Shown piece by piece: positions 10,652 through 37,856 of a stretch of DNA of 64,000 bases. The notes beneath the pieces are model-generated. The model searched no databases, was not told the origin of the DNA, and saw only the letters and a program-made list of their open reading frames with translations. Position 1 is the first letter of the stretch; each line of letters starts with the position of its first letter. This DNA comes from an uncultured Desulfobacteraceae bacterium (GTDB taxonomy: Bacteria; Desulfobacterota; Desulfobacteria; Desulfobacterales; CAZHA01), in contig CAZHAH010000009.1 of assembly GCA_964530095.1 (NCBI GenBank), forward strand, positions 331 through 64,330. The letters are read 5' to 3'. Made by a program: the position numbers and the translations under genes.

Positions 10652-11425
10652 TCAGGAGGCCGTCATCGGCGCCAGTGAAACACCATGGGCTTCCAAAGTT
10701 TGGCGAATGGTTTTTACCAAATCCACGGCCGTCGGCGTATCACCATGAACGCACAAGGTTTCGGCTTCTAAAGGAATGACGGTGCCGTCGACGGCAATCA
10801 CGGTGCCTTCGGTGGCCATCCGCAGGGCACGCTCCGAAACCGCCTGGGGGTCCTTGATGACTGCGCCGGAAAGTTTGCGTGAAACCAGATTTCCCTCAGG
10901 CGTATAGGCGCGATCGGCAAAGGCCTCATAGACAACCTTCAAACCCAACTCTTGGCCGATACGCTGCATCAGCTTGCCCTTGGCGCCGGCCAGGGCCACA
11001 TACATCAGGTCGGCATCGACACTGACGATGGCTTCCGCCACGGCACGGGCCACATCTTCGTTTTCAACTGCCGTCAAATACAGAGCGCCATGCGGTTTTA
11101 CATGTCGCAAACGGGTGTTGTTGGCCTTGCAAACAGCCTTCAAGGCACCGATCTGATAGATAAGGTAACTGCGGATTTCATCCATCGTACAGTCCATGTT
11201 GCGGCGACCGAATCCCAAAAGGTCGGGGTAGCCGGGATGGGCGCCTGCGCCTACGCCGTGGTTGACCGCCAACTTGACTGTGGTATCCATCACCATCGGA
11301 TCTCCGGCATGCCACCCGCAGGCGATGTTGGCCGAGGTGATATGCTGAATAACGGCTTCATCCATACCGATTCGGTAGGCCCCGAAGCTTTCACCCATGT
11401 CAGAGTTCAAATCGATCGTTTTCAA
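10652..11425 (-). CDS. pxpA: LamB/YcsF family protein (5-oxoprolinase PxpA-like)
   Basis: 257 aa with IDLNSDMGESFGAYRIGMDEAVIQHITSANIACGWHAGDP. Confidence 0.85.
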   Translation of the reverse strand: MKTIDLNSDMGESFGAYRIGMDEAVIQHITSANIACGWHAGDPMVMDTTVKLAVNHGVGAGAHPGYPDLLGFGRRNMDCTMDEIRSYLIYQIGALKAVCKANNTRLRHVKPHGALYLTAVENEDVARAVAEAIVSVDADLMYVALAGAKGKLMQRIGQELGLKVVYEAFADRAYTPEGNLVSRKLSGAVIKDPQAVSERALRMATEGTVIAVDGTVIPLEAETLCVHGDTPTAVDLVKTIRQTLEAHGVSLAPMTAS

Positions 11426-24707: not shown

Positions 24708-25898
24708 TCAGACAAGCTGAGATAGCAATGTGCGGGCGGGAACGTGGACCGGATAATCATATTTGAAACAATCGCTATTCTCAAATCCGGCATCGATGAT
24801 CAGTTGAAATGCGTGTTTAGCACCGATTCGATCTTGGAAATAGGCTAAATTTTTATTTAAATGACGTGAACCTGATGATTTTGCTTCAAGCATGAACCAG
24901 GGTTGCCGATTCTTGGTAACCAGGAAATCTATTTCTCTTTTATCTTTTGTTCTCAAAAAATGAAGGCCATATTCATCAAACCCCAGATCTTGCCACCAAG
25001 CGACAGCTTTTAACAATTGGCAGGCGATAAAATTTTCATTTTTGGCGCCCACATCATCAACCAGTGACCAATCTGTAAGATATAATTTGGGCTCTTTTAA
25101 AAGACTTCTTGCGATATTTTGGGACCACGGTCGAATAGAGAAGCAATAATAAAGCGATTCCAGAATTGTTGTCCACCGTCTGACTGAATCCTGAGAAGCC
25201 CTGATCTTTCTGGATAGGGCCGCATAGTTCACCAGTTGACCTGCCTGCTGTCGTAATAGCTCAGCCAGCAACTCGACCTGAGCAATCTCATAAACCCTGG
25301 CTGAGTCTCTTAAATCTTCACGAAATAGCAGTTTTAGTCGTGTCCTTTTCCATCTGTTATAAAACCGAGGGTTACGTTTGAGGTAGGGTTCAGGAAAGCC
25401 TCCATATCTTAAGAGTGCTGCGAAATCATCGTCATCAATGGGTCGGGGTGGAGATAGTTCATCTTGATTAAAATCTTGTTTAATAATTTCTGCAACGGAT
25501 AACGGATGCATGTGATACATAAAATAGCGACCCATCAGGCTGTCGGCGCCTTTACGGTATATATCCAATCTTGAGCTTCCGGTGACAACGACATTGAAAC
25601 GACTTCGGGCATACGTGTCATAGAATCCTTTAAGAAAATTTTTCCAGTGTGGGAACTTATGCAGTTCGTCAAAAATAATTGTTCTTTGGTCCGATGCGCC
25701 AATGGAATCCGCAACTGCCTTCGGCCCTGCTATCACTAACCTCCGATGGTCTTCGTTATCCCAGTTATAATAATGGTGGCGTTTTATAAAGGCCGTACAC
25801 GATGTCGTCTTGCCTACCTGCCTCGGACCGGCAATAAATGCCATCTGATTATCATGCGCAAAATGTTCTAAAAGAAGTGATTCATATTTCCTTTTCAT
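24708..25898 (-). CDS. AAA_14/DUF4143-type ATPase
   Basis: Walker A is IAGPRQVGKTT and Walker B is IIFDELHK. ATG 25898 (MKRKYESLLLEHF) is preferred to TTG 25919. Confidence 0.75.
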   Translation of the reverse strand: MKRKYESLLLEHFAHDNQMAFIAGPRQVGKTTSCTAFIKRHHYYNWDNEDHRRLVIAGPKAVADSIGASDQRTIIFDELHKFPHWKNFLKGFYDTYARSRFNVVVTGSSRLDIYRKGADSLMGRYFMYHMHPLSVAEIIKQDFNQDELSPPRPIDDDDFAALLRYGGFPEPYLKRNPRFYNRWKRTRLKLLFREDLRDSARVYEIAQVELLAELLRQQAGQLVNYAALSRKIRASQDSVRRWTTILESLYYCFSIRPWSQNIARSLLKEPKLYLTDWSLVDDVGAKNENFIACQLLKAVAWWQDLGFDEYGLHFLRTKDKREIDFLVTKNRQPWFMLEAKSSGSRHLNKNLAYFQDRIGAKHAFQLIIDAGFENSDCFKYDYPVHVPARTLLSQLV

Positions 25899-26114
25899 AG
25901 CCCGATTATATACCAACAAATGAACAAGTCAAGACTATTCCGCGGCATATCGTGTAATAGTCATGACCATACCACGATTTTATCTGAAATTGACCGAAAT
26001 TTATCAAAGTTTATTCCCTTGACACCTAAATTAATCTGCCATTATACCTCGGTCATAAGAGAGACTTTTAGATAATACTTTTGATTGAATGAATTCTTAA
26101 AAATGGGAGGTAAT

Positions 26115-29174: not shown

Positions 29175-29423
29175 ATGGCAACATTATCCAGCGGCATACG
29201 GGACAATCACCAACGCGGGTCAGTTGGTGATTTCCTGAAGGAAAAGATTCGGGCCAAGACCGATCTATCGTTTGTTTCCGCATACTTTACCATTTATGCA
29301 TTTGAAGCGCTAAAACAGCAGCTTTTGAACATTGATCATCTTGATTTTCTTTTCGGTGAACCGAAATTCATCCGCAGCCTGGATCCCGATAAAACAGATA
29401 AATTATTTTTGATTGTTGATTAA
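29175..29423 (+). pseudogene. N-terminal stub resembling PLD-domain/helicase defence proteins
   Basis: The 82 aa read ...RGSVGDFLKEKIRAKTDLSFVSAYFTIYAFEALKQQLLNIDHLDFLFGEPKF.... It stops before any HKD motif, 14 nt upstream of the methyltransferase gene. Confidence 0.35.
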
Positions 29424-29437
29424 ATTAATACAATTAG

Positions 29438-30556
29438 ATGAAATTATTGCAAAAAAGTGTTGAATCGGTACCGCATCATTGGGGGGAGTCCTGCACAGGA
29501 ACAGAGTGCACCTTTCATCAACTTTCACCATATATTGGAAAACTAAAAAGCTCCATTGCTCGCGATCTGGTTGCTACTTATTCAAAACCAGGCGGTCTTA
29601 TTGCAGACCCTTTTTCAGGATCTGGAACTATACCTCTGGAAGCTTTATTGCAGGAACGAAGAGCCTTTGCCGCTGACATTAGTCCATATGCAAAGGTTTT
29701 GTGCCAAGCTAAACTTAAGGCACCACCGTCACTTGAGGATGCGTTGAAGCAAGCGGAAGAAGCCTTAAATCTATCATTTGCTCTTCGGAGTCCCGATTTG
29801 AGGAGAGTCCCCCTTTGGGTTAGACAGTTTTTCCACCCTCGAACACTTAAAGAAGCAATCAAATTTGCAACAATTTGTAAAAGAAACAAATACCATTTCT
29901 TGCTTGCCTGTTTTCTTGGAATATTGCACCATCAGCGCCCGGGCTTTTTATCATATCCGAGCAGCCATTTGGTCCCTTATCTCAGAGAAAAGAAATATCC
30001 GCGTGACCAATTTCCAGAGCTATATAAGTATCGAGAAATACGTACCCGTCTAATAGCCAAGATCCGAAGGGCATACAGGAGGGGACCTGCAATACGCATA
30101 AATGGAAATTCAACATACAAACATTGCTCTATAAAAAAGTTGAACCTGCCGGAATCTTTTGACTGTTTGATAACCAGCCCTCCTTATATGAACGCCCTAG
30201 ACTATAATAGAGACAATCGTTTAAGACTATGGTTTATAAATCCTGGTTATTCGATTCCTGAAGAGGACGAAGTAATTCGACAACAAGAATCTTTCAAAGA
30301 AGCTATGGCTTTATTAGCCCAAAAAGTGAATAAATCTTTAAAATCAAAAGGATATTGTGTAATTATTGTGGGAGAACACATAGCAATCAAGCCTCGTACG
30401 CATCTGTCAAATTTCGTTTGTAAAACAATTGGCGATAATGCTCCCTTACTGAAACTTCAGATGATTATAGAAGATGATATTCCAGATGTCCGAAGATCGC
30501 GACGTGATTACAGAGGTACAAAAACCGAACATTTTTTAATATTCCAAAAGGCATAG
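29438..30556 (+). CDS. Amino-methyltransferase (N4-C/N6-A type), motif I before motif IV
   Basis: 372 aa. The AdoMet motif I is DPFSGSGT (aa 57-64, context HQLSPYIGKLKSSIARDLVATYSKPGGLIADPFSGSGTIPLEALL). Catalytic motif IV is SPPY (aa 247-250, context LITSPPYMNALDY). About 180 mostly helical residues lie between them. Confidence 0.75.
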   Translation: MKLLQKSVESVPHHWGESCTGTECTFHQLSPYIGKLKSSIARDLVATYSKPGGLIADPFSGSGTIPLEALLQERRAFAADISPYAKVLCQAKLKAPPSLEDALKQAEEALNLSFALRSPDLRRVPLWVRQFFHPRTLKEAIKFATICKRNKYHFLLACFLGILHHQRPGFLSYPSSHLVPYLREKKYPRDQFPELYKYREIRTRLIAKIRRAYRRGPAIRINGNSTYKHCSIKKLNLPESFDCLITSPPYMNALDYNRDNRLRLWFINPGYSIPEEDEVIRQQESFKEAMALLAQKVNKSLKSKGYCVIIVGEHIAIKPRTHLSNFVCKTIGDNAPLLKLQMIIEDDIPDVRRSRRDYRGTKTEHFLIFQKA

Positions 30557-30557
30557 A

Positions 30558-33026
30558 ATGCGAAAAAATTTACCGGATAAAGATATTTTTATAAGAAAGA
30601 AGGTGCCAGGCCAACCGGGTGAGTACATAATAGTTGAACACAAGGGCACTGGAATGAATGGCCATGTCTTTCGAGCTCATTCTGATGAACTCAAACGAGA
30701 TATTGCTGTAAAAATTATACCAAAACAAAACCTGGGGCCAAACTGGAAACAAGAATTCCAAAAAGCTAATATTTTGCGCACAACAGCGGTCGTTAAGTTT
30801 TTCAGCGTCAATGAATGGGATGACCTCGAACATGATTGCGTTGTACTATTATCGGAATACATATATGGAAATTCACTTCGTGAATATATTCAAAAAAATA
30901 AGAATAATCTATTTATTGATTTTATAGTGGCTTTTTTAAAAGAGATTTTTTCTTTTTTCCATGAATTAACTGAAATAGGAGATCAACATGGGGATTTGCA
31001 TTCCGGAAACATCTTGGTTGAAGATCGATCCACATTATTATTAACTGGGCCACCATATGCCTTCAGGATAACCGATTTTGGCGTCACTTCAGCGGCAGAA
31101 CATGGAGATGTAAAAGACGATTATGAACACCTTGCCATTGTTCTTAAAGAACTTTTAGAAAATGTTGATTACCAGAACGCCGACTCTCAGGGAAAATATA
31201 CTTTTAATATCCTTAACGATCATTTTCTTGCAAAACATTTAATGGAAAAAGATACGTCGATTGATCCTTATGCACGGCGCCCAAAAAAACTTTTTGAACT
31301 ACTTGATGAAATTGAATCTGATTTTGAAAAAAATATAGCCGACAGAACTTTCAACAAAATAAAAGATCCCTTTGAATACCTCAGTTGTGAGCATTTTGGA
31401 GATTCACACAGTTTACTAAGGACCCTTTATTCCGATCGTTTTCTTGGACTATCTTCTATCGAAACAAGAAATAACCTAGTGCTTACGGGTCCTCGAGGTT
31501 GTGGTAAAAGCACAGTATTTAAAAGCCTTAGTCTTCAGCACAGTTTTATCATTGATGACGACAGCCCAAACAAACGATCATATATTGGTATTTACTACAG
31601 ATGTGATGATTTGTATTTCGCTTTTCCGCGGTACAGGATTCCTGATAGGCCAGAGGCATTTAATGTTCCGATGCATTTCATAATTTCTACGCTTATCAGT
31701 GAACTTTTCGATTCAATAAAAAAATGGGCATTACGATATTTTAAGAATGAGTTCGAAAAGAAGGAGGAAAAAATTTCAAAATCCGCTTGGGATTTGTTGG
31801 AGCTCAATCGTCCTCCTGAACCAGGGATTGACAGCTTTAAGGCACTTTCAGCTATGCTGCAAAAAGAAAGGATCAGAGCAGCCAACAAACAACGCTTCGT
31901 AAATGATCCAAAGCATAGTTTTGGTTTCTACTTCGGCCCTGAAATACTTATTAAAATCTGTAACATGCTTACTGAAATATTTTCCTTTCTTCAAAATCGT
32001 CCTTTCTACTTTTTTATTGATGACTACTCTTCCCCAAAGATTACTATTGATCTTCAGCAGAATCTAAATCGACTTTTTATGCAGCGGACATCCTCGTGCT
32101 TTTTTAAGCTTTCCACCGAAAGCACCGTTAGTTATACACGTTGCGATATTGATACCAAAGCTTACGTAGAAGGTAGAGAATTTACGCTTATGAATCTTGG
32201 GTTAAATTACATCCACGCGGAAGAAAAGGAAAAGCTCCGATTTATTGAAGATGTATTTAAAAGAAGATTAAAGGCGATTGACAACTATCCAGTTTCTGAT
32301 CTTGATGCGCTGTTAGGATCTTATGAGGGTCCAAATCACACACAAGCTGCGAAAATTATCCGAAAAGGGGAAAGAGTAGAGATTTGGGGAAAGGAGTCGC
32401 TTTGCAAACTGTGCTGTGGTGATATTTATCATATTATTGATTTAGTAAAACAAATGGTTGACAATATAGGTGGCTCTGAAGGACTTGCTCAAATTGAAGA
32501 CTCTCAAAAAATCTCATCTAAAGATCAAACAAAAGCTATAAGAGATCAGGCAGGCAACTTTTTAAAAGGTTTGCGCATTTTACCTAATGGGTCTCAACTG
32601 GTTGAAATTGTAAGTTCATTTGGTAACGTCGCACATTCTTATCTTAAGCATAGAAATTCTAAGAATGTAAAAACAAACCCTCCATGGCAGGCACATCGAA
32701 TTGAACCGTATGATCAATTGGCACTTTCTGATGAAGCACAAAAAATATACGATGAGCTTTTAAGGTATTCGGTATTTATTGAAGATGTCAGAGGAAAAAG
32801 CAGGCGGGGAAAAGTTGTACCCAGGCTTTATCTCAGACGGCTTCTCATTCCACATTTTAATCTTACATTCAGCATGCGTGATTCAGTTGAGCTCGAACCA
32901 GATGAAATTCAGGAACTGCTACTGACACCTAAAGAATTTGAAAAAAGACATTTAATTAAAAAAGGATTAATTGAAAACCCTGATCAATTAAAATTTCCTG
33001 GGTTTGAAAAGGAGGAACTTTGTTAA
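30558..33026 (+). CDS. Protein-kinase-like domain fused to a P-loop NTPase and a large C-terminal region
   Basis: 822 aa. Kinase signatures are a Gly-rich loop GTGMNGHVF, Lys52 in IAVKII, a catalytic loop HGDLHSGNIL (D146, N151) and ITDFG (D173). Walker A is GPRGCGKST (aa 311-319) and Walker B is FYFFIDDYS (D488, D489). The start lies 1 nt after the methyltransferase stop. Confidence 0.75.
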   Translation: MRKNLPDKDIFIRKKVPGQPGEYIIVEHKGTGMNGHVFRAHSDELKRDIAVKIIPKQNLGPNWKQEFQKANILRTTAVVKFFSVNEWDDLEHDCVVLLSEYIYGNSLREYIQKNKNNLFIDFIVAFLKEIFSFFHELTEIGDQHGDLHSGNILVEDRSTLLLTGPPYAFRITDFGVTSAAEHGDVKDDYEHLAIVLKELLENVDYQNADSQGKYTFNILNDHFLAKHLMEKDTSIDPYARRPKKLFELLDEIESDFEKNIADRTFNKIKDPFEYLSCEHFGDSHSLLRTLYSDRFLGLSSIETRNNLVLTGPRGCGKSTVFKSLSLQHSFIIDDDSPNKRSYIGIYYRCDDLYFAFPRYRIPDRPEAFNVPMHFIISTLISELFDSIKKWALRYFKNEFEKKEEKISKSAWDLLELNRPPEPGIDSFKALSAMLQKERIRAANKQRFVNDPKHSFGFYFGPEILIKICNMLTEIFSFLQNRPFYFFIDDYSSPKITIDLQQNLNRLFMQRTSSCFFKLSTESTVSYTRCDIDTKAYVEGREFTLMNLGLNYIHAEEKEKLRFIEDVFKRRLKAIDNYPVSDLDALLGSYEGPNHTQAAKIIRKGERVEIWGKESLCKLCCGDIYHIIDLVKQMVDNIGGSEGLAQIEDSQKISSKDQTKAIRDQAGNFLKGLRILPNGSQLVEIVSSFGNVAHSYLKHRNSKNVKTNPPWQAHRIEPYDQLALSDEAQKIYDELLRYSVFIEDVRGKSRRGKVVPRLYLRRLLIPHFNLTFSMRDSVELEPDEIQELLLTPKEFEKRHLIKKGLIENPDQLKFPGFEKEELC

Positions 33027-34069
33027 AGGTTCTTAGAATTGATAGAAAATTGGAGAAACTCGACAAGCCATCCATGCTGCCCACTGACACTGGGCCTGTA
33101 AATAAAGATGATACACTAATTGTGTGTGCAGGATTTGAAGATAGAGCAATAAAAGCGTTGAATTTGGTAATAGAATCGGGACAAATTGGATTTTCTTTAG
33201 TTATTATAGAGTATCTGCCAGAAGTGCGCGAAAACAAAATTGACGAGATTATGAACAAATGCAAAGAGTGCGGTATATCATTTAATCGTTTGCGCTATGA
33301 TCGAGCAAACCCTTCAGGTTTTGGAGACAAATTATTAAGTATCCTGGATCCGGATAGCGGCCGAATTTTTGTTGATATTTCAGGCATGTCTAGATTGCTT
33401 ATAGTGCAGGTGTTGAGTACATTGGGGAAATCTCCTTTTAATTTTTCTAAGGTCTCACTTTTATTTACAGTTGCTTTAGAATATCCTCCAAGTGAAAAAG
33501 AAGTTAATGAAGCTATTATAAAGATGGAAGAAAATTCATTTTATTCCGTCATGTTCCTATCTTCAGGAATATTTGAGTTAACAGTTGTACCGGAGTTATC
33601 TTCTGTATCATTAGAAGGTCAGCCCATTAGAGTGGTTGCATTTCCATCCTTCAACCCACACCAGCTTGCTGCTTTGCGAACCGAAGTCCAGGCATCTTTT
33701 TTTACCTTAATTCATGGAATACCGCCCTTAAAAGAAAACACATGGAGGCCTCAAAAAATCAAGGCGCTGAACCGAACAGAGGAGATTACTAACCGAGAAG
33801 ATATTGAGGCAAGCACATTAGAATACCAGGAAACTTTAACGATTTTGCTCGACATTTATGATAAATATGGTGTGATGGAAAGGATAGTCATTGCACCTAC
33901 CGGTAGTAAAATGCAGGCTGTGGCTGTAGGCATCTTCAGAGCCTTTATGGACGATATTCAAATAGTTTATCCAACACCACGTCTTTTCCCAGAACCCAAG
34001 AAATATACAAAAGGATCAAGGCAGTTGTACCTCCTACACCTCGATTCTTTCTCAGAGATAAGACAGTAA
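33020..34069 (+). CDS. Hypothetical protein with two CARF-like Rossmann halves
   Basis: 349 aa. A TTG start follows AAGGAGGAA and overlaps the kinase gene stop by 7 nt. There is an internal repeat. LIVCAGFEDRAIKAL...RIFVDISGMSRLLIV corresponds to RVVAFPSFNPHQLAAL...RIVIAPTGSKMQAVAV. These motifs recall the Csa3-type GF[DE]/SGGMR and Can/Card1-type TGGTK CARF signatures. Confidence 0.5.
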   Translation: MLKVLRIDRKLEKLDKPSMLPTDTGPVNKDDTLIVCAGFEDRAIKALNLVIESGQIGFSLVIIEYLPEVRENKIDEIMNKCKECGISFNRLRYDRANPSGFGDKLLSILDPDSGRIFVDISGMSRLLIVQVLSTLGKSPFNFSKVSLLFTVALEYPPSEKEVNEAIIKMEENSFYSVMFLSSGIFELTVVPELSSVSLEGQPIRVVAFPSFNPHQLAALRTEVQASFFTLIHGIPPLKENTWRPQKIKALNRTEEITNREDIEASTLEYQETLTILLDIYDKYGVMERIVIAPTGSKMQAVAVGIFRAFMDDIQIVYPTPRLFPEPKKYTKGSRQLYLLHLDSFSEIRQ

Positions 34070-34383
34070 TAAGCACAAACAACAGATTGAAGAGGGCTAA
34101 GATACGCTATAGGGACGATACAAGGAAAGCTAAACAACTGTTGTGTCTAAACCTGTGGGAAAAAGAAACGTATTTTAAAATGAAAATCTTGAAAAGAACG
34201 AACCGATTAGTGAAATTGTTTAAAAGACATACCCCCCATTGAAGCGGGAACCGAGAGTAGCGTAGCTTATCTTGCCAAACTATTTACAGATAGAACTCAC
34301 TGATTTTAAAAGGAACAACTGCCCGGATCCGTTTCGCGTATCAGCGCTAAATATTTATCTTGATATTGCCAGGAAAAAATAAA

Positions 34384-34569
34384 ATGAAATCGAAACTGCC
34401 TTTATCATCTTTTTGCCTAAAAAATTTTAAGGCCATACAGAACAGTAAAACCATAAGGTTTACACAACTGACTGTTTTTATAGGCAACAACGGATCAGGA
34501 AAAAGCAGTATTGTCGTGGGCTGGAAACATTTCAATCCGTTATCCGGGTTGCTGTGCGCAACGGCATAA
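34384..34569 (+). pseudogene. N-terminal stub of an OLD/ABC-type (AAA_15/21-like) ATPase
   Basis: MKSKLPLSSFCLKNFKAIQNSKTIRFTQLTVFIGNNGSGKSSIV is followed by unrelated sequence and a stop after about 60 codons. Confidence 0.5.
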
Positions 34570-34686: not shown

Positions 34687-34908
34687 ATGGAAGACCTTTT
34701 TATTTCAGACCCGACTATCATGATCGGAAAGCCTGTAATCATCGGTACGCGTATTACAGTCGAATCAATTATTGAAAAATTGGCTGCCGGGGAGACCATT
34801 GAACAGAGCCTTGAAGCGCATCCTCGATTAACAAAAAATTCAATGGATGGTTTAAGGGACATCCTTACTTTTATTGATAGCAATGGAGAGGAAAGCCATG
34901 CCACGTGA
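34687..34908 (+). CDS. DUF433 domain protein (antitoxin-like)
   Basis: IMIGKPVIIGTRITVESIIEKLAAGETIEQSLEAHPRLT. Confidence 0.7.
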   Translation: MEDLFISDPTIMIGKPVIIGTRITVESIIEKLAAGETIEQSLEAHPRLTKNSMDGLRDILTFIDSNGEESHAT

Positions 34909-35233
34909 TTATGAGGACTATTTGAACGATATTCTCGATGCGATCCTGAAAATAGAGGATTTTACCAAGGGGATGACGCTTGAAACCTTCAAGGAAGATG
35001 ATAAAACAGTTTTCGCGGTCATCCGCGCCATGGAAATCATCGGTGAAGCTGCCAAGCATATTCCGGATGATGTCCGCTCGCAACATCCGCAAGTGCCCTG
35101 GAAAGCCATGACCGGCATGCGGGACATTTTGGCCCACGATTACTTCGGTGTTAATTTGAATACTATATGGATGACAGCAAGGGAGAAAATACCCTTGTTA
35201 GAGGCTTCGCTGAAACAAATGCTTGGGAAATAA
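34895..35233 (+). CDS. hepT: HepT-like HEPN toxin (DUF86)
   Basis: The RX4HXY motif reads MRDILAHDY. ATG 34895 (MPRDYEDYLNDILDA) overlaps the DUF433 3' end. Confidence 0.8.
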   Translation, partial: AMPRDYEDYLNDILDAILKIEDFTKGMTLETFKEDDKTVFAVIRAMEIIGEAAKHIPDDVRSQHPQVPWKAMTGMRDILAHDYFGVNLNTIWMTAREKIPLLEASLKQMLGK

Positions 35234-35237
35234 TGCA

Positions 35238-35531
35238 ATGAAGAAATTATCTTTGATTAAAAAGACATTACAAAAACAAAAAGATACTTTGTCCGCTAAC
35301 TACGGCGTCAAAGAAATCGGTCTGTTCGGCTCTGTGACCAAAAGGGCGGCAGCGCCGTCAAGCGACATCGACATCCTGATAGATTTTCATAAAACGGTCG
35401 ATCTGTTCACCTTCATTGATTTGAAGCATCATTTGTCGGAACTTCTCGACGCCGAAGTCGATCTTGTGATGAAGGATGGGTTGAAGCCGACGATTGGGAA
35501 ACGGATATTGAAAGAAGTTGAGTATATTTAA
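35238..35531 (+). CDS. mntA: MNT-type minimal nucleotidyltransferase antitoxin
   Basis: GLFGSVTKRAAAPSSDIDILIDF (GS...DxD). ATG 35238 lies 4 nt after the hepT stop. Confidence 0.8.
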   Translation: MKKLSLIKKTLQKQKDTLSANYGVKEIGLFGSVTKRAAAPSSDIDILIDFHKTVDLFTFIDLKHHLSELLDAEVDLVMKDGLKPTIGKRILKEVEYI

Positions 35532-35538
35532 AGTGGTG

Positions 35539-35605
35539 ACATTATATTTAATCGAAAAAATTATTATAGTTTCCTGGAAAACGGGGACATATAAACGTGA
35601 AGGAA
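35539..35605 (+). repeat. 67-bp direct repeat, copy A (orphan duplicate of the radC 3' end)
   Basis: It has 3 mismatches in 67 nt against 37795-37861. It would encode DIIFNRKNYYSFLENGDI followed by a stop. Confidence 0.85.
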
Positions 35606-35612
35606 TACGATT

Positions 35613-35969
35613 TTGACAACAGACAACAACATCTATGACATTGTTATAGTGGGTGGTGGGATTATGGGAAGTTCCACCGCCTATCATCTCCTTCATGACG
35701 ATGGGCGCCTGGAAATCGCCGTCATCGAGCCGGACCCGACCTACGAGCGGGCTTCCTCAACGCTCTCATTGGCAAACGTTCGCATTCAATACAGTTTGAA
35801 GCAGAACGTGCAGATATCACAACATACCTTTGAGGTTTTGGGAAAATTCAATGCGGAGATGGAAGTCGCTGGACAAAGACCCAACATCAATTTTCGATCA
35901 GAAGGAAATCTCTTTTTGACCGATGCCGGCACCCGTGAGGTGTTTGACTTTCAGGAGGCCAATGCATGA
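35613..35969 (+). pseudogene. N-terminal fragment of an FAD-dependent (DAO-type) oxidoreductase
   Basis: The dinucleotide fold reads YDIVIVGGGIMGSSTAYHL. It has only 118 aa where the family has about 380-400. Its stop overlaps the Fic start (ATGA). Confidence 0.55.
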
Positions 35970-37066
35970 GCTTTGATCCGGAAAAGCCCTATAACGATCT
36001 TCCCCTGTTGCCACCAAAGGCAGAGATCGAAACCAAAGCAGTATTAAAAAAGCTGGTGGCCGCCGGCCAATTCCTTGCGGAGTTGAAAGGGTATGTTGAA
36101 CTCCTGCCTAACAAAGCCATTATTCTTAATTCTATCATACTGCAGGAAGCAAAAGACAGCTCGGAAATAGAAAATATCGTGACAACCCATGATCAACTGT
36201 TCCGGGCAATAGCGGCCAGTAAAAAAATCGTGGAACCGGCGGTAAAAGAAGTCCTGAATTATCGCAGCGCCCTTTACAAAGGCTTTTATCTGGTAAAGGA
36301 ACGCAATCTGTTAACCACCAATACGATTGTCGACGTCCAGGAAGAGCTGGAACAAAACAGAGCGGGTATCAGGAAGCTTCCCGGGACAAAGTTGGTTAAC
36401 GACAAGACCGGTGAGGTGATGTATACCCCGCCGGAAAATGAAAAAACAATCCGGAACTTGCTTGCAAATCTTGAGGCATATATCAATACAGACCCGGAAA
36501 CCCTCCATCCATTGATCAAGCTGGCCATTATTCATTATCAGTTTGAATCCATTCATCCTTTTTATGACGGAAACGGAAGAACCGGACGGATCATCAATGT
36601 GCTCTATCTAGTGATGAAAGGGTTACTTTCCGAACCGCTTTTGTATTTAAGCCGGTATATCATTCAGCATAAATCCGATTATTACGGGTTACTGAGAAAG
36701 GTAACCGTCGAGAATGCCTGGGAAGGGTGGATATGCTTTATGCTTACGGCAGTAGAGAAAACAGCCGGCTATACCCTGGCTTTAAGCAAAGGGATCGTCG
36801 CGCTCATGGAAAACGTCCGCAAATCCCTGCAGAACGAACGGCCCAAAATATATTCCCATGAACTTGTGGAAACACTTTTTACCAACGTATATACGAGAAT
36901 AGACCATTTGGTGGAAAAGAATATCGCCTCCCGTAATGTGGCTGGAAGATACCTTAAGGAACTGGAGTCAATTGGTATCTTGAAAAGAGAAAAGGTCGGG
37001 CGGGATGTTTTTTATATAAATTTCGGACTGTATGATTTGTTTAAAAGCTTTCCAAATATACACTGA
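35966..37066 (+). CDS. Fic-family AMPylase-type protein, class II (internal inhibitory helix)
   Basis: 366 aa. The Fic motif is HPFYDGNGRTGRI. The N-terminal SSEIEN fits [ST]xxxE[GN]. There is a C-terminal wHTH (RYLKELESIGILKREKVGRDVFY). Confidence 0.85.
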   Translation: MSFDPEKPYNDLPLLPPKAEIETKAVLKKLVAAGQFLAELKGYVELLPNKAIILNSIILQEAKDSSEIENIVTTHDQLFRAIAASKKIVEPAVKEVLNYRSALYKGFYLVKERNLLTTNTIVDVQEELEQNRAGIRKLPGTKLVNDKTGEVMYTPPENEKTIRNLLANLEAYINTDPETLHPLIKLAIIHYQFESIHPFYDGNGRTGRIINVLYLVMKGLLSEPLLYLSRYIIQHKSDYYGLLRKVTVENAWEGWICFMLTAVEKTAGYTLALSKGIVALMENVRKSLQNERPKIYSHELVETLFTNVYTRIDHLVEKNIASRNVAGRYLKELESIGILKREKVGRDVFYINFGLYDLFKSFPNIH

Positions 37067-37228
37067 TTTCAATGGATTTAGTGCATATTTGGAGGATGTG
37101 CACCGGTGCAGTGCATGTTTTAAAACCGGCCTAATCAATGTACGCATAAAATGATAATTTCCGACCGGCATAAAAATCCCCAATGAACAGGCCATTAAAC
37201 GGAAAATACCGGGAAGGAAACAACGGCT

Positions 37229-37332
37229 AATTATCTGGAAAATATTGAGAAAAAAGGCGTTCTCAGCGCCACGAGGTCGGGGGAAAAAATCTTTATCTGA
37301 ATACGAAACTCTATGAGATTCTTTCAAAATAA
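37229..37332 (+). pseudogene. Frameshifted C-terminal remnant of a second Fic-type wHTH
   Basis: NYLENIEKKGVLSATRSGEKIFI is followed by a stop. The adjacent frame reads KNLYLNTKLYEILSK. Compare RYLKELESIGILKREKVGRDVFYINFGLYDLF in the intact Fic protein. Confidence 0.4.
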
Positions 37333-37355
37333 CGTGTCGATGCCGGCGACATGAA
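37331..37355. repeat. Right, inverted copy of the 27133-27157 motif
   Basis: AACGTGTCGATGCCGGCGACATGAA. Its reverse complement matches the left copy at 21 of 25 positions. Confidence 0.6.
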
Positions 37356-37358
37356 ATA

Positions 37359-37397
37359 AAAACGTGTCGATAATATGGTCATGCATCGACACGTTTT
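37359..37397. terminator. Perfect 13-bp stem hairpin, bidirectional terminator-like
   Basis: Arm AAAACGTGTCGAT (37359-37371), a 13-nt loop, then arm ATCGACACGTTTT (37385-37397). A/T runs lie on both sides. Confidence 0.45.
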
Positions 37398-37556
37398 AAA
37401 AGCCTGTTCGTAAAAGCGACATGTTCCTGACTTGGATAATGTGTCCAAATTTTATTGTTTTATGGGCACGTTATTTAGATGTGGGCATGATTTGGACATG
37501 AAAAAAGGGGGCCGCTGTTTCACTGTCTCAAAAAAACCATAGTATCATTTTTTTGT

Positions 37557-37856
37557 GTGTCACTCGACGGTGCGAATGAGGTCATAACTACCCGCATCGT
37601 TTCCGTCGTACTCGTAAACAAAACCCAGGTCCATCCCAGAGAAGTTTTTGCCGACCCCATTACTGACCGGGCATCGGCCATCATAGTCGTTCACAATCAT
37701 CCTTCGGGGAAATTGGTACCAAGCAAAGAAGATATTGAGATGACCTCGCAATTGAAAGCCGGGGGAGAAACACTGGGGATCAGACTGCTGGATCACATTA
37801 TATTTAATCGAAAAGATTATTACAGTTTCCTGGAAAACGGGGACATACAAACGTGA
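37557..37856 (+). CDS. radC: RadC-like JAB/MPN domain protein, N-terminally truncated
   Basis: VVHNHPSGKLVPSKEDIEMT and LLDHIIF. It has only 99 aa and a GTG start. The frame is open upstream only back to a TGA at about 37487, with no ATG. Confidence 0.6.
   Translation: MSLDGANEVITTRIVSVVLVNKTQVHPREVFADPITDRASAIIVVHNHPSGKLVPSKEDIEMTSQLKAGGETLGIRLLDHIIFNRKDYYSFLENGDIQT

Follow-up and report, generated by a model that had tools for sequence, protein, structure and literature searches.

A conserved methyltransferase, kinase-ATPase and tandem CARF-type gene trio from an uncultured Desulfobacteraceae bacterium: a candidate methylation-linked immune module

A stretch of 64,000 nucleotides from an uncultured Desulfobacteraceae bacterium (GenBank assembly GCA_964530095.1, contig CAZHAH010000009.1, positions 331 to 64,330 of the forward strand; hereafter the window) carries three tightly packed plus-strand genes, which encode an amino-methyltransferase dependent on S-adenosylmethionine (SAM) (gene 1), a protein-kinase-like domain fused to an ORC/Cdc6-like AAA+ ATPase (gene 2) and a tandem CARF-type protein (gene 3). 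The trio is an intact, horizontally acquired cassette that matched no named system in PADLOC and NCBIfam, and because about 80 independent genomes show the same gene order with equally tight spacing, the arrangement is more than chance. From its genomic context we infer a function in defence, and the reading that we favour, with slightly less than even confidence, is that of a self-contained and horizontally mobile immune module that would be methylation-linked, phosphorylation-based, nuclease-free and gated by a ligand sensor.

Structure and conservation of the cassette

The three genes and their junctions are as follows.

29438..30556, + strand: gene 1, SAM-dependent amino-methyltransferase, 372 aa (Pfam, PADLOC, PHROG and family alignment)
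30558..33026, + strand: gene 2, kinase, AAA+ ATPase and C-terminal domain, 822 aa
33020..34069, + strand: gene 3, tandem CARF-type protein (CARF6 clade), 349 aa, TTG start
30554..30560, + strand: gene 1/gene 2 junction, TAG (30554-30556), 1 nt, ATG (30558), as read in the sequence
33009..33026, + strand: gene 2/gene 3 junction, AAGGAGGAA (33009-33017), then a TTG overlapping the TAA by 7 nt

The coordinates of the three open reading frames (ORFs) matched exactly those given in an earlier sequence-only reading of this DNA, and both junctions could be read directly as it had described them, with the TAG of gene 1 lying 1 nt ahead of the gene 2 ATG and the gene 2 stop overlapping the gene 3 TTG by 7 nt (TTGTTAA) behind AAGGAGGAA. 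The trio had also been called AT-rich relative to core genes, in agreement with a G+C (GC) content of 38.0% vs 47.6% in the remainder of the window; of the two 60-nt counts offered for this, 42 G/C at 11221-11280 was reproduced, and 11 at 30901-30960 became 12 on recounting. GC content is also lowered over a wider segment of about 27-38 kb. The same arrangement, including an 82-aa stub upstream, was present on contigs of at least 10 independent sequencing runs, and the trio is therefore not an assembly artefact. A scan for promoters and terminators gave counts equal to the shuffled expectation and was hence uninformative.

When 185,579 species genomes were scanned by pattern, 179 stretches with a gene 2 relative were returned, from which 80 loci, labelled from more than 15 phyla, were kept. 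In these loci gene 1 lay directly upstream and gene 3 directly downstream of gene 2 wherever the contig reached that far, with a single locus (L029) lacking a gene 1 orthologue, and all three genes were found at a coverage of at least 90% in 64 of the 80. The commonest gaps family-wide were +1 nt between genes 1 and 2 and -4 nt between genes 2 and 3, which indicates that translational coupling is a property of the family. The order was kept even at 24-28% gene 2 identity, and the synteny that the earlier proposal had called for was found nearly everywhere, in the 80 loci as well as in distant branches. Pairwise identities of the trio genes correlated at 0.58-0.72, most tightly for gene 2 with gene 3, and conservation ranked gene 1 first, gene 2 second and gene 3 third. 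No fourth conserved gene accompanied the trio, the commonest flanking family being present in 10 of about 80 loci.

The closest labelled relative, from a Thermodesulfobacteriota metagenome-assembled genome (MAG), shared 88% gene 2 identity, and there are cultured carriers, among them Citreicoccus inhibens M34, Ferriphaselus sp. R-1 and Bradyrhizobium quebecense 66S1MB. In the last of these the cassette lies on a plasmid and adjoins a recombinase, with the trio order kept and the kinase and ATPase encoded as two genes; kinase, ATPase and sensor are likewise split or fused in other lineages. A phage gene set was ruled out by the lack of any cassette match in 50,697 phage genomes and by only 3 distant matches in IMG/VR. 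Two IMG/VR contigs classed as viral (L089 and L090) carry a divergent full trio (gene 2 at about 27% identity, gene 1 at E 1e-168) and may be prophages or mis-binned host DNA.

Predicted properties of the three proteins

Gene 2 had been read from the sequence as a kinase-like domain fused to a Walker A/B nucleoside triphosphatase, and the residues named for it (K52, HGD146, DFG173 and GKS317) were found and are invariant or nearly so. Its parts are listed below.

30615..31352, + strand: protein-kinase-like domain (aa ~20-265), from Pfam Pkinase, Foldseek and invariant residues
31422..32327, + strand: ORC/Cdc6-like AAA+ ATPase (aa ~289-590), P-loop GPRGCGKS, Walker B DD488-489, from PF24389
32328..32957, + strand: C-terminal helical bundle and predicted basic winged-helix-like domain (aa ~591-800), including RGKSRRGKVVPRLYLRR, from an AlphaFold2 (AF2) model

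The N-terminal domain has the Hanks-type features of a catalytic lysine, an HxD...N loop, a DFG motif and the kinase fold. Pfam Pkinase matched aa 26-184 with 45 bits vs a cut-off of 31.7, residues K52, H144, D146, N151, D173 and F174 were invariant in 57 homologues, and a Foldseek search returned Stk1/PknB at E 6.5e-9 with a target-normalised template modelling (TM) score of about 0.6. The Pfam matches end at about aa 186 and the APE motif is absent; a protein is a likely but not certain substrate of this kinase. In the ATPase domain, Pfam PF24389 ('ORC-CDC6-like') matched at E 2.6e-44 with 152.4 bits vs a gathering cut-off of 27, Walker A and B are intact, and G311, R313, G314, G316, K317, D488, D489 and R540 were invariant in the same 57 homologues.

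The AF2 model of gene 2 (predicted local distance difference test, pLDDT, 85.6; predicted TM score, pTM, 0.70) consists of the kinase, the ATPase core and a C-terminal helical region. In the core, the second strand is followed by a large helical insert; helices span aa 350-474 between strands 343-348 and 483-488, and R540 lies ahead of strand 542-546. Near the C-terminus a helix-helix-strand-strand (hairpin) unit at aa 725-759 bears the basic stretch RGKSRRGKVVPRLYLRR, and the C-terminal domain, which presumably binds nucleic acid, is the best-conserved segment of gene 2 (0.80). The architecture of gene 2 recurs in more than 850 proteins.

Gene 3 had been proposed to consist of two CARF-like halves, a proposal borne out by full-length CARF6 profile matches and by an AF2 model (pTM 0.88) with two Rossmann-like halves.

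33092..33553, + strand: N-terminal Rossmann-like half (aa 25-178), from the CARF signature and AF2
33374-33394, + strand: CARF signature D119-I-S121-G-M-S-R125, after strand 4 (aa 116-119)
33620..34066, + strand: C-terminal Rossmann-like half (aa 201-349), S210 after strand 1 and T294-G-S-K297

As defined in PMC4012209, the CARF signature is [DN]x[ST]xxx[RK] following strand 4; strand 1 of the Rossmann-like core is likewise followed by a polar residue. D119 and S121 of gene 3 were invariant and R125 nearly so in the homologue alignment, G295, S296 and K297 were invariant and S210 was conserved, so that the Rossmann-like core, the signature and the profile matches together place gene 3 in the CARF superfamily (CARF6 clade). 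Among PADLOC profiles, five 'CARF6--CARF_CARF_CARF' models matched at E 2.8e-14 to 1.5e-5, two of them full-length, as did the C-terminal third of PDLC01925 at E 1.2e-9 and CARF3 at E 0.003. Foldseek returned the CARF domains of Csa3 in complex with cyclic tetra-adenylate (cA4), Csm6 and Card1 at probability 1.0 and weak E values of 2e-4 to 5e-3. Searches of gene 3 against Pfam and NCBIfam gave no family match, a sequence search of the PDB returned nothing, and BFVD yielded generic Rossmann matches only. The sequence does not show an internal duplication, as the two halves aligned at a non-significant hhalign E of 0.057 and had only a P-x-x-x-E-N motif in common.

An exhaustive profile search collected about 1,100 gene 3 cluster representatives, nearly all of them stand-alone proteins of 340-380 aa. 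A few relatives (P0438, P0478 and P0506) are fused to a calcineurin-like phosphoesterase, a histidine kinase (HisKA/HATPase_c) or a TIR domain. Of the 1187 positions of PDLC01925 ('CARF6--CARF_STK_AAA'), gene 2 covers 35-718 and gene 3 covers 889-1184; this fused model, together with a kinase-AAA+-CARF family containing a winged helix-turn-helix (wHTH) that was described in 2014, shows that genes 2 and 3 can occur as a single polypeptide. The fusions of gene 3 relatives to a phosphoesterase, histidine kinase or TIR domain follow the usual CARF arrangement of sensor plus output and argue that gene 3 is the regulatory sensor of gene 2, and the fused and split kinase-ATPase-CARF variants suggest that the two proteins act together.

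Gene 1 had been described as an amino-methyltransferase with DPFSGSGT and SPPY motifs, and both were recovered and found to be invariant or nearly so in homologues.

29606..29629, + strand: motif I, DPFSGSGT, SAM binding (aa 57-64), from the family alignment
30176..30187, + strand: motif IV, SPPY, catalytic (aa 247-250), from the family alignment

Motif I lies about 185 aa ahead of motif IV. Across 38 homologues S247, P248, P249 and Y250 of motif IV were invariant, as were D57, P58, F59, G61 and T64 of motif I; G63 was nearly so, and so was a long block between the two motifs, H164 to R183. These motifs (DPFxGxGT and SPPY), with a Pfam N6_N4_Mtase score of 39.8 bits that exceeds its cut-off, are those of a DNA amino-methyltransferase. 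PADLOC returned only the generic MTase_II (E 1.2e-20), PHROG 'DNA methyltransferase' matched at E 1.2e-17, and the closest PDB relatives by sequence were DNA N4-cytosine/beta-class methyltransferases, over motif I only. A housekeeping enzyme, which the sequence-only reading had named as a possible objection, does not fit the strict linkage of gene 1 to genes 2 and 3 or the presence of the cassette in just 179 stretches from 185,579 species genomes.

The only locus without a gene 1 orthologue offers our best evidence that DNA methylation is the required activity. In its place, and divergently oriented, a full-length beta-class N6_N4 DNA methyltransferase (L029:5147-6262, - strand; E 1.4e-52) adjoins gene 2, and we read it as a non-orthologous replacement of gene 1. 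This replacement makes DNA the probable substrate of gene 1, and with the DNA-methyltransferase relatives in PDB, PHROG and PADLOC it suggests that gene 1 acts by DNA methylation.

Two further features of gene 1 were observed. Its N-terminus (29480-29520, aa 15-28) has a conserved W15...C19...C24...H27-Q28 motif, which may be a small metal-binding or recognition element. At one locus (L052:2896-6993, + strand) gene 1 appears to be extended at its N-terminus by about 1,000 aa that match no Pfam family; the genome is GC-rich, and the extension may reflect either a genuine fusion or an ORF called too long.

Proposed function, competing readings and known systems

According to the immune reading that we favour, gene 1 would methylate host DNA at an exocyclic amino group, as N4-methylcytosine (m4C) or N6-methyladenine (m6A), at a target site that appears to be the same throughout the family, and so place a self mark. 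Gene 2 would be both reader and effector, its AAA+ ATPase and basic winged-helix-like C-terminus engaging unmarked DNA, on which it would assemble in an ATP-dependent manner; assembly would activate the N-terminal kinase, and phosphorylation of host or phage proteins would lead to a replication block or abortive infection without a nuclease. Gene 3 would form a complex with gene 2 and gate it through a nucleotide-like ligand made outside the cassette. The invariant kinase, Walker A/B and methyltransferase motifs suggest that the enzymes are active, and the apparently fixed specificity of gene 1 together with the highly conserved DNA-binding-like end of gene 2 suggests a simple reader-writer pair. 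As to context, a recurrent family related to restriction-modification (RM), BREX or helicases lay within 7 kb in 21 of 56 long loci, and the nearest neighbours include type III Mod/Res, PbeA, DrmD, BrxH and DUF1156/HmaB.

Several observations weigh against this reading. The cassette contains neither a signal synthase nor a nuclease, so that both the way in which it takes effect and the source of the CARF ligand are guesswork, and the association of the trio with defence islands is moderate and not universal. The catalytic loop of the gene 2 kinase (HGDLHSGN, HGDLHxGN in the family) and its short C-lobe resemble those of atypical kinases, with weak ABC1 and Bud32 matches, and for this reason it may act on something other than a protein. 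Assignment of the winged helix is drawn from predicted secondary structure alone, a Foldseek search with the whole gene 2 model returned kinases only and no ORC/Cdc6 structure, and a PDB sequence search with the ATPase part returned P-loop matches only, again with no ORC/Cdc6 structure. Restriction-type methyltransferases usually diversify between their motifs; the inter-motif region of gene 1 is conserved at 0.70 across phyla, and the RNA methylase family UPF0020 scored 43.1 bits, above its Pfam cut-off. Because of this conservation and this score, the target of gene 1 could be RNA, protein or a small molecule.

A more specific proposal, which we consider rather unlikely, is that the trio is a nuclease-free RM analogue in which the ATPase reads methylation, the CARF protein senses a phage- or damage-derived nucleotide in the absence of Cas10 or a CD-NTase, and the output is phosphorylation. 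If true, it would represent the first functional CARF pathway beyond cyclic-oligonucleotide signalling and the first CARF-controlled kinase. The role of CARF domains without a cyclic-oligoadenylate synthase has been a question since the domain was defined in 2014, and the trio is a compact, widespread and strictly conserved test case for it. If the trio protects against phage, it would add an immune system that is tied to methylation and acts through phosphorylation instead of cleaving DNA, and it could help to explain Pgl/BREX type 2 and the methylation-associated defence system (MADS), which use the same enzyme types and are mechanistically unclear.

The competing view that survives best, itself unlikely in our judgement, is that gene 1 modifies RNA, protein or a small molecule, or is a regulated output, without any self-marking of DNA. 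The trio would then be a stress-signalling, abortive-infection or toxin-antitoxin-like module in which the CARF sensor triggers the kinase/ATPase and methylation serves as output or safeguard. It draws on the UPF0020 (RMKL-like RNA methylase) score and weak NCBIfam Trm14 matches, on an inter-motif conservation atypical of restriction-type enzymes in the best conserved gene of the trio, and on the lack of a nuclease in the cassette. We also count in its favour that PglX of the Pgl system is reportedly toxic without PglZ. However, the swap of gene 1 for a classical beta-class DNA methyltransferase at L029, the DNA N4C/N6A enzymes that make up its nearest solved, phage-family and PADLOC relatives, and neighbours that are mostly DNA restriction-modification genes all speak for a DNA target.

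It is quite improbable that type III CRISPR-Cas or CBASS employs the trio as an ancillary effector, in which gene 3 would bind a cyclic oligonucleotide supplied in trans by a Cas10 or CD-NTase from elsewhere in the genome and thereby switch on the kinase/ATPase. Such a role would suit the canonical CARF signature and the fold matches to cA4-bound Csa3, Csm6 and Card1, as well as the co-occurrence of most CARF proteins with CRISPR-Cas stated in PMC4012209. Against it, neither the flank clusters that recur nor the 25 commonest Pfam/PADLOC families of the nearest neighbours include a cas or cyclase family, and the window yielded no CRISPR array. The trio always has a methyltransferase of its own, for which such an effector has no need, and the cassette travels alone on a plasmid and on viral contigs. 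Gene 3 does resemble the type III CARF effectors Csa3, Csm6 and Card1 in its Rossmann-like CARF fold, its signature after strand 4 and its sensor-plus-output logic; it differs in that it is not linked to Cas10 or a cyclase, has two CARFs in one chain instead of a homodimer, and is paired with an output, kinase and ATPase, from a neighbouring gene.

Little credence is likewise given to a non-immune role, in which the trio would serve mobile elements as a module for epigenetic control, for control of replication or for maintenance (addiction), the ORC/Cdc6-like ATPase and a fixed-site methyltransferase controlling replication or expression together with kinase signalling. Pairing of such an ATPase with a methyltransferase of apparently fixed specificity, carriage on the Bradyrhizobium plasmid beside a recombinase, and a low GC content and patchy distribution that fit mobile DNA are consistent with it. 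The flanks, however, are mainly restriction, BREX-related or helicase genes and not replication or partition genes, integrase families account for 2 of 136 nearest neighbours, and in the window the cassette lies in a chromosomal island that contains no replication genes.

Least probable is a reversed logic of the Pgl type, in which the methyltransferase would stay silent until infection and mark invading or progeny phage DNA, which the gene 2 ATPase and winged helix would recognise in the next infected cell and so switch on the kinase: the enzyme repertoire (methyltransferase, kinase, ATPase) is that of Pgl, PglW also joins a kinase to wHTH and ORC/Cdc6-like modules (PMC12839542) and a conserved methyltransferase specificity suits a fixed 'foreign' tag, but homologues of PglZ, PglY and PglX were not found in the trio, the Pgl model itself has no direct evidence (PMC12839542), and the sequence data do not discriminate it from self-marking.

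The likeness to Pgl/BREX type 2 and MADS that had been remarked on in the sequence-only reading proved, as it had claimed, to be a resemblance and not membership. With BREX type 2 the trio shares a methyltransferase, a protein kinase and an ATPase, without a dedicated nuclease as main effector. PglW consists of NERD, pseudokinase and kinase domains, three wHTH and an inactive ORC/Cdc6-like module (PMC12839542), whereas gene 2 has intact instead of degenerate Walker A/B motifs, one kinase, and neither NERD nor pseudokinase. The trio has three genes, lacks PglZ, BrxC/PglY, BrxHI and BrxD and includes a CARF sensor, and gene 1, at 372 aa, is unrelated to the large PglX. PglZ had no match in the trio and was absent both from the flank clusters that recur and from the commonest families of nearest neighbours, and a PADLOC scan of genes 1 and 2 gave no significant match to BrxC/PglY/PglX or any other BREX component. 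Membership of BREX type 2/Pgl was rejected accordingly, there being no PglZ, BrxC/PglY, large PglX or PglW architecture.

MADS likewise combines a methyltransferase, a kinase and ATPases, and PADLOC gave weak domain-level matches to mad2 (E 1.2e-7), mad6 (E 6.2e-13) and mad8 (E 0.0036) that are confined to the SAM motif, the kinase N-lobe and the P-loop. MADS has eight genes (mad1-8) vs three in the trio, and to our knowledge it has no CARF component. The best NCBIfam match of the trio was MAD6 at 40.7 bits vs a cut-off of 460, and MAD3 matched a neighbouring stub only, at 14.7 bits vs 420, so that MADS was excluded. Stk2 and PD-T4-6 are comparable as Hanks-type kinases presumed to be immune effectors (PD-T4-6 vs gene 2, E 3.4e-15); they stand alone, whereas the gene 2 kinase is fused to an AAA+ domain and tied to a methyltransferase and a CARF sensor. 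A type II RM system was also rejected, since no nuclease domain was found in the trio and no recurrent nuclease gene, and hence no cognate endonuclease, beside it.

The trio had been called undescribed, which holds in that it belongs to no named system: PADLOC labelled its proteins only as generic MTase_II, kinase-domain PD-T4-6/mad6 and 'CARF6', and none of the three is modelled in NCBIfam release 20.0 (June 2026). It does not hold for the kinase/AAA+/CARF combination, which was described in 2014 as a fusion of kinase, AAA+ with an arginine in the P-loop, CARF and wHTH (Makarova et al. 2014, PMC4012209) and is profiled in PADLOC as 'CARF6--CARF_STK_AAA' (PDLC01925) and 'CARF6--CARF_CARF_CARF'. 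In common with this family, the trio has an S/T/Y kinase, an AAA+ domain with a P-loop arginine (GPRGCGKS) and a CARF6-type module. By contrast, the sensor of the trio is encoded by a gene of its own that is translationally coupled to gene 2, an N-terminal Zn-ribbon is missing from gene 2, and a methyltransferase, which the portions of PMC4012209 consulted do not mention, is obligately linked. Nor is the family small, as there are more than 850 gene 2 relatives and 179 species-genome stretches. A full-text literature search found no description of the trio; the 2020 CARF classification, which lay outside that search, may mention the methyltransferase. Mentions of a kinase and 2xCARF in the CoCoNuT paper belong to other systems. 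As far as this search reached, three aspects appear to be unreported: the obligate pairing with a methyltransferase, the three-gene operon as the usual form, and the breadth of the family.

Genomic neighbourhood

In the window the trio is intact and its neighbours are decayed, as the following rows indicate.

29175-29423, + strand: left N-terminal stub, helicase-related/SNF2-related, 82 aa (protein match)
34360-34569, + strand: right N-terminal stub, Walker-A end of an AAA_15/PtuA/GajA/OLD-type ATPase
34687-37856, + strand: toxin-antitoxin-type run of DUF433, HepT-like, MNT nucleotidyltransferase, a 118-aa DAO fragment, Fic/SoFic and a C-terminal RadC/JAB fragment

An island of decayed toxin-antitoxin and defence genes had been noted around the trio, and toxin-antitoxin genes and gene fragments were indeed found there; the wider island in the window also has an XRE regulator and a CopG antitoxin. 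Both bracketing stubs are present and the right one is of the OLD/ABC ATPase type as described; the label 'PLD-like' for the left one could not be verified, its match being helicase/SNF2-related. The left stub stops 14 nt before the gene 1 ATG, and because of this short distance the cassette may be transcribed from the promoter of the stub. Just outside the low-GC island lies a gene for an AAA_14 + DUF4143 ATPase (24708-25919, - strand).

Among the other loci, type III Mod and Res genes adjoin the trio in six (L046, L048, L074, L075, L077 and L083), from Nitrospirota, Binatia and other MAGs. At four loci (L042, L050, L069 and L081) gene 3 is directly followed by a DUF1156 methyltransferase gene in the same orientation, an SNF2 helicase lies close by, and in three of these four DUF499 stands alongside the DUF1156 gene; this is a Hma/BREX-related set that may form a super-operon of two methylation-linked systems with the trio. 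A gene for ThyX, the flavin adenine dinucleotide (FAD)-dependent thymidylate synthase, adjoins the trio at L001, L014, L022, L036, L063 and L064 and on the Bradyrhizobium plasmid, with coordinates L088:10867-11790 recorded for it. ThyX neighbours occurred mostly in the branch with a more divergent gene 1, and their adjacency might reflect a connection to the metabolism of pyrimidines or modified bases.

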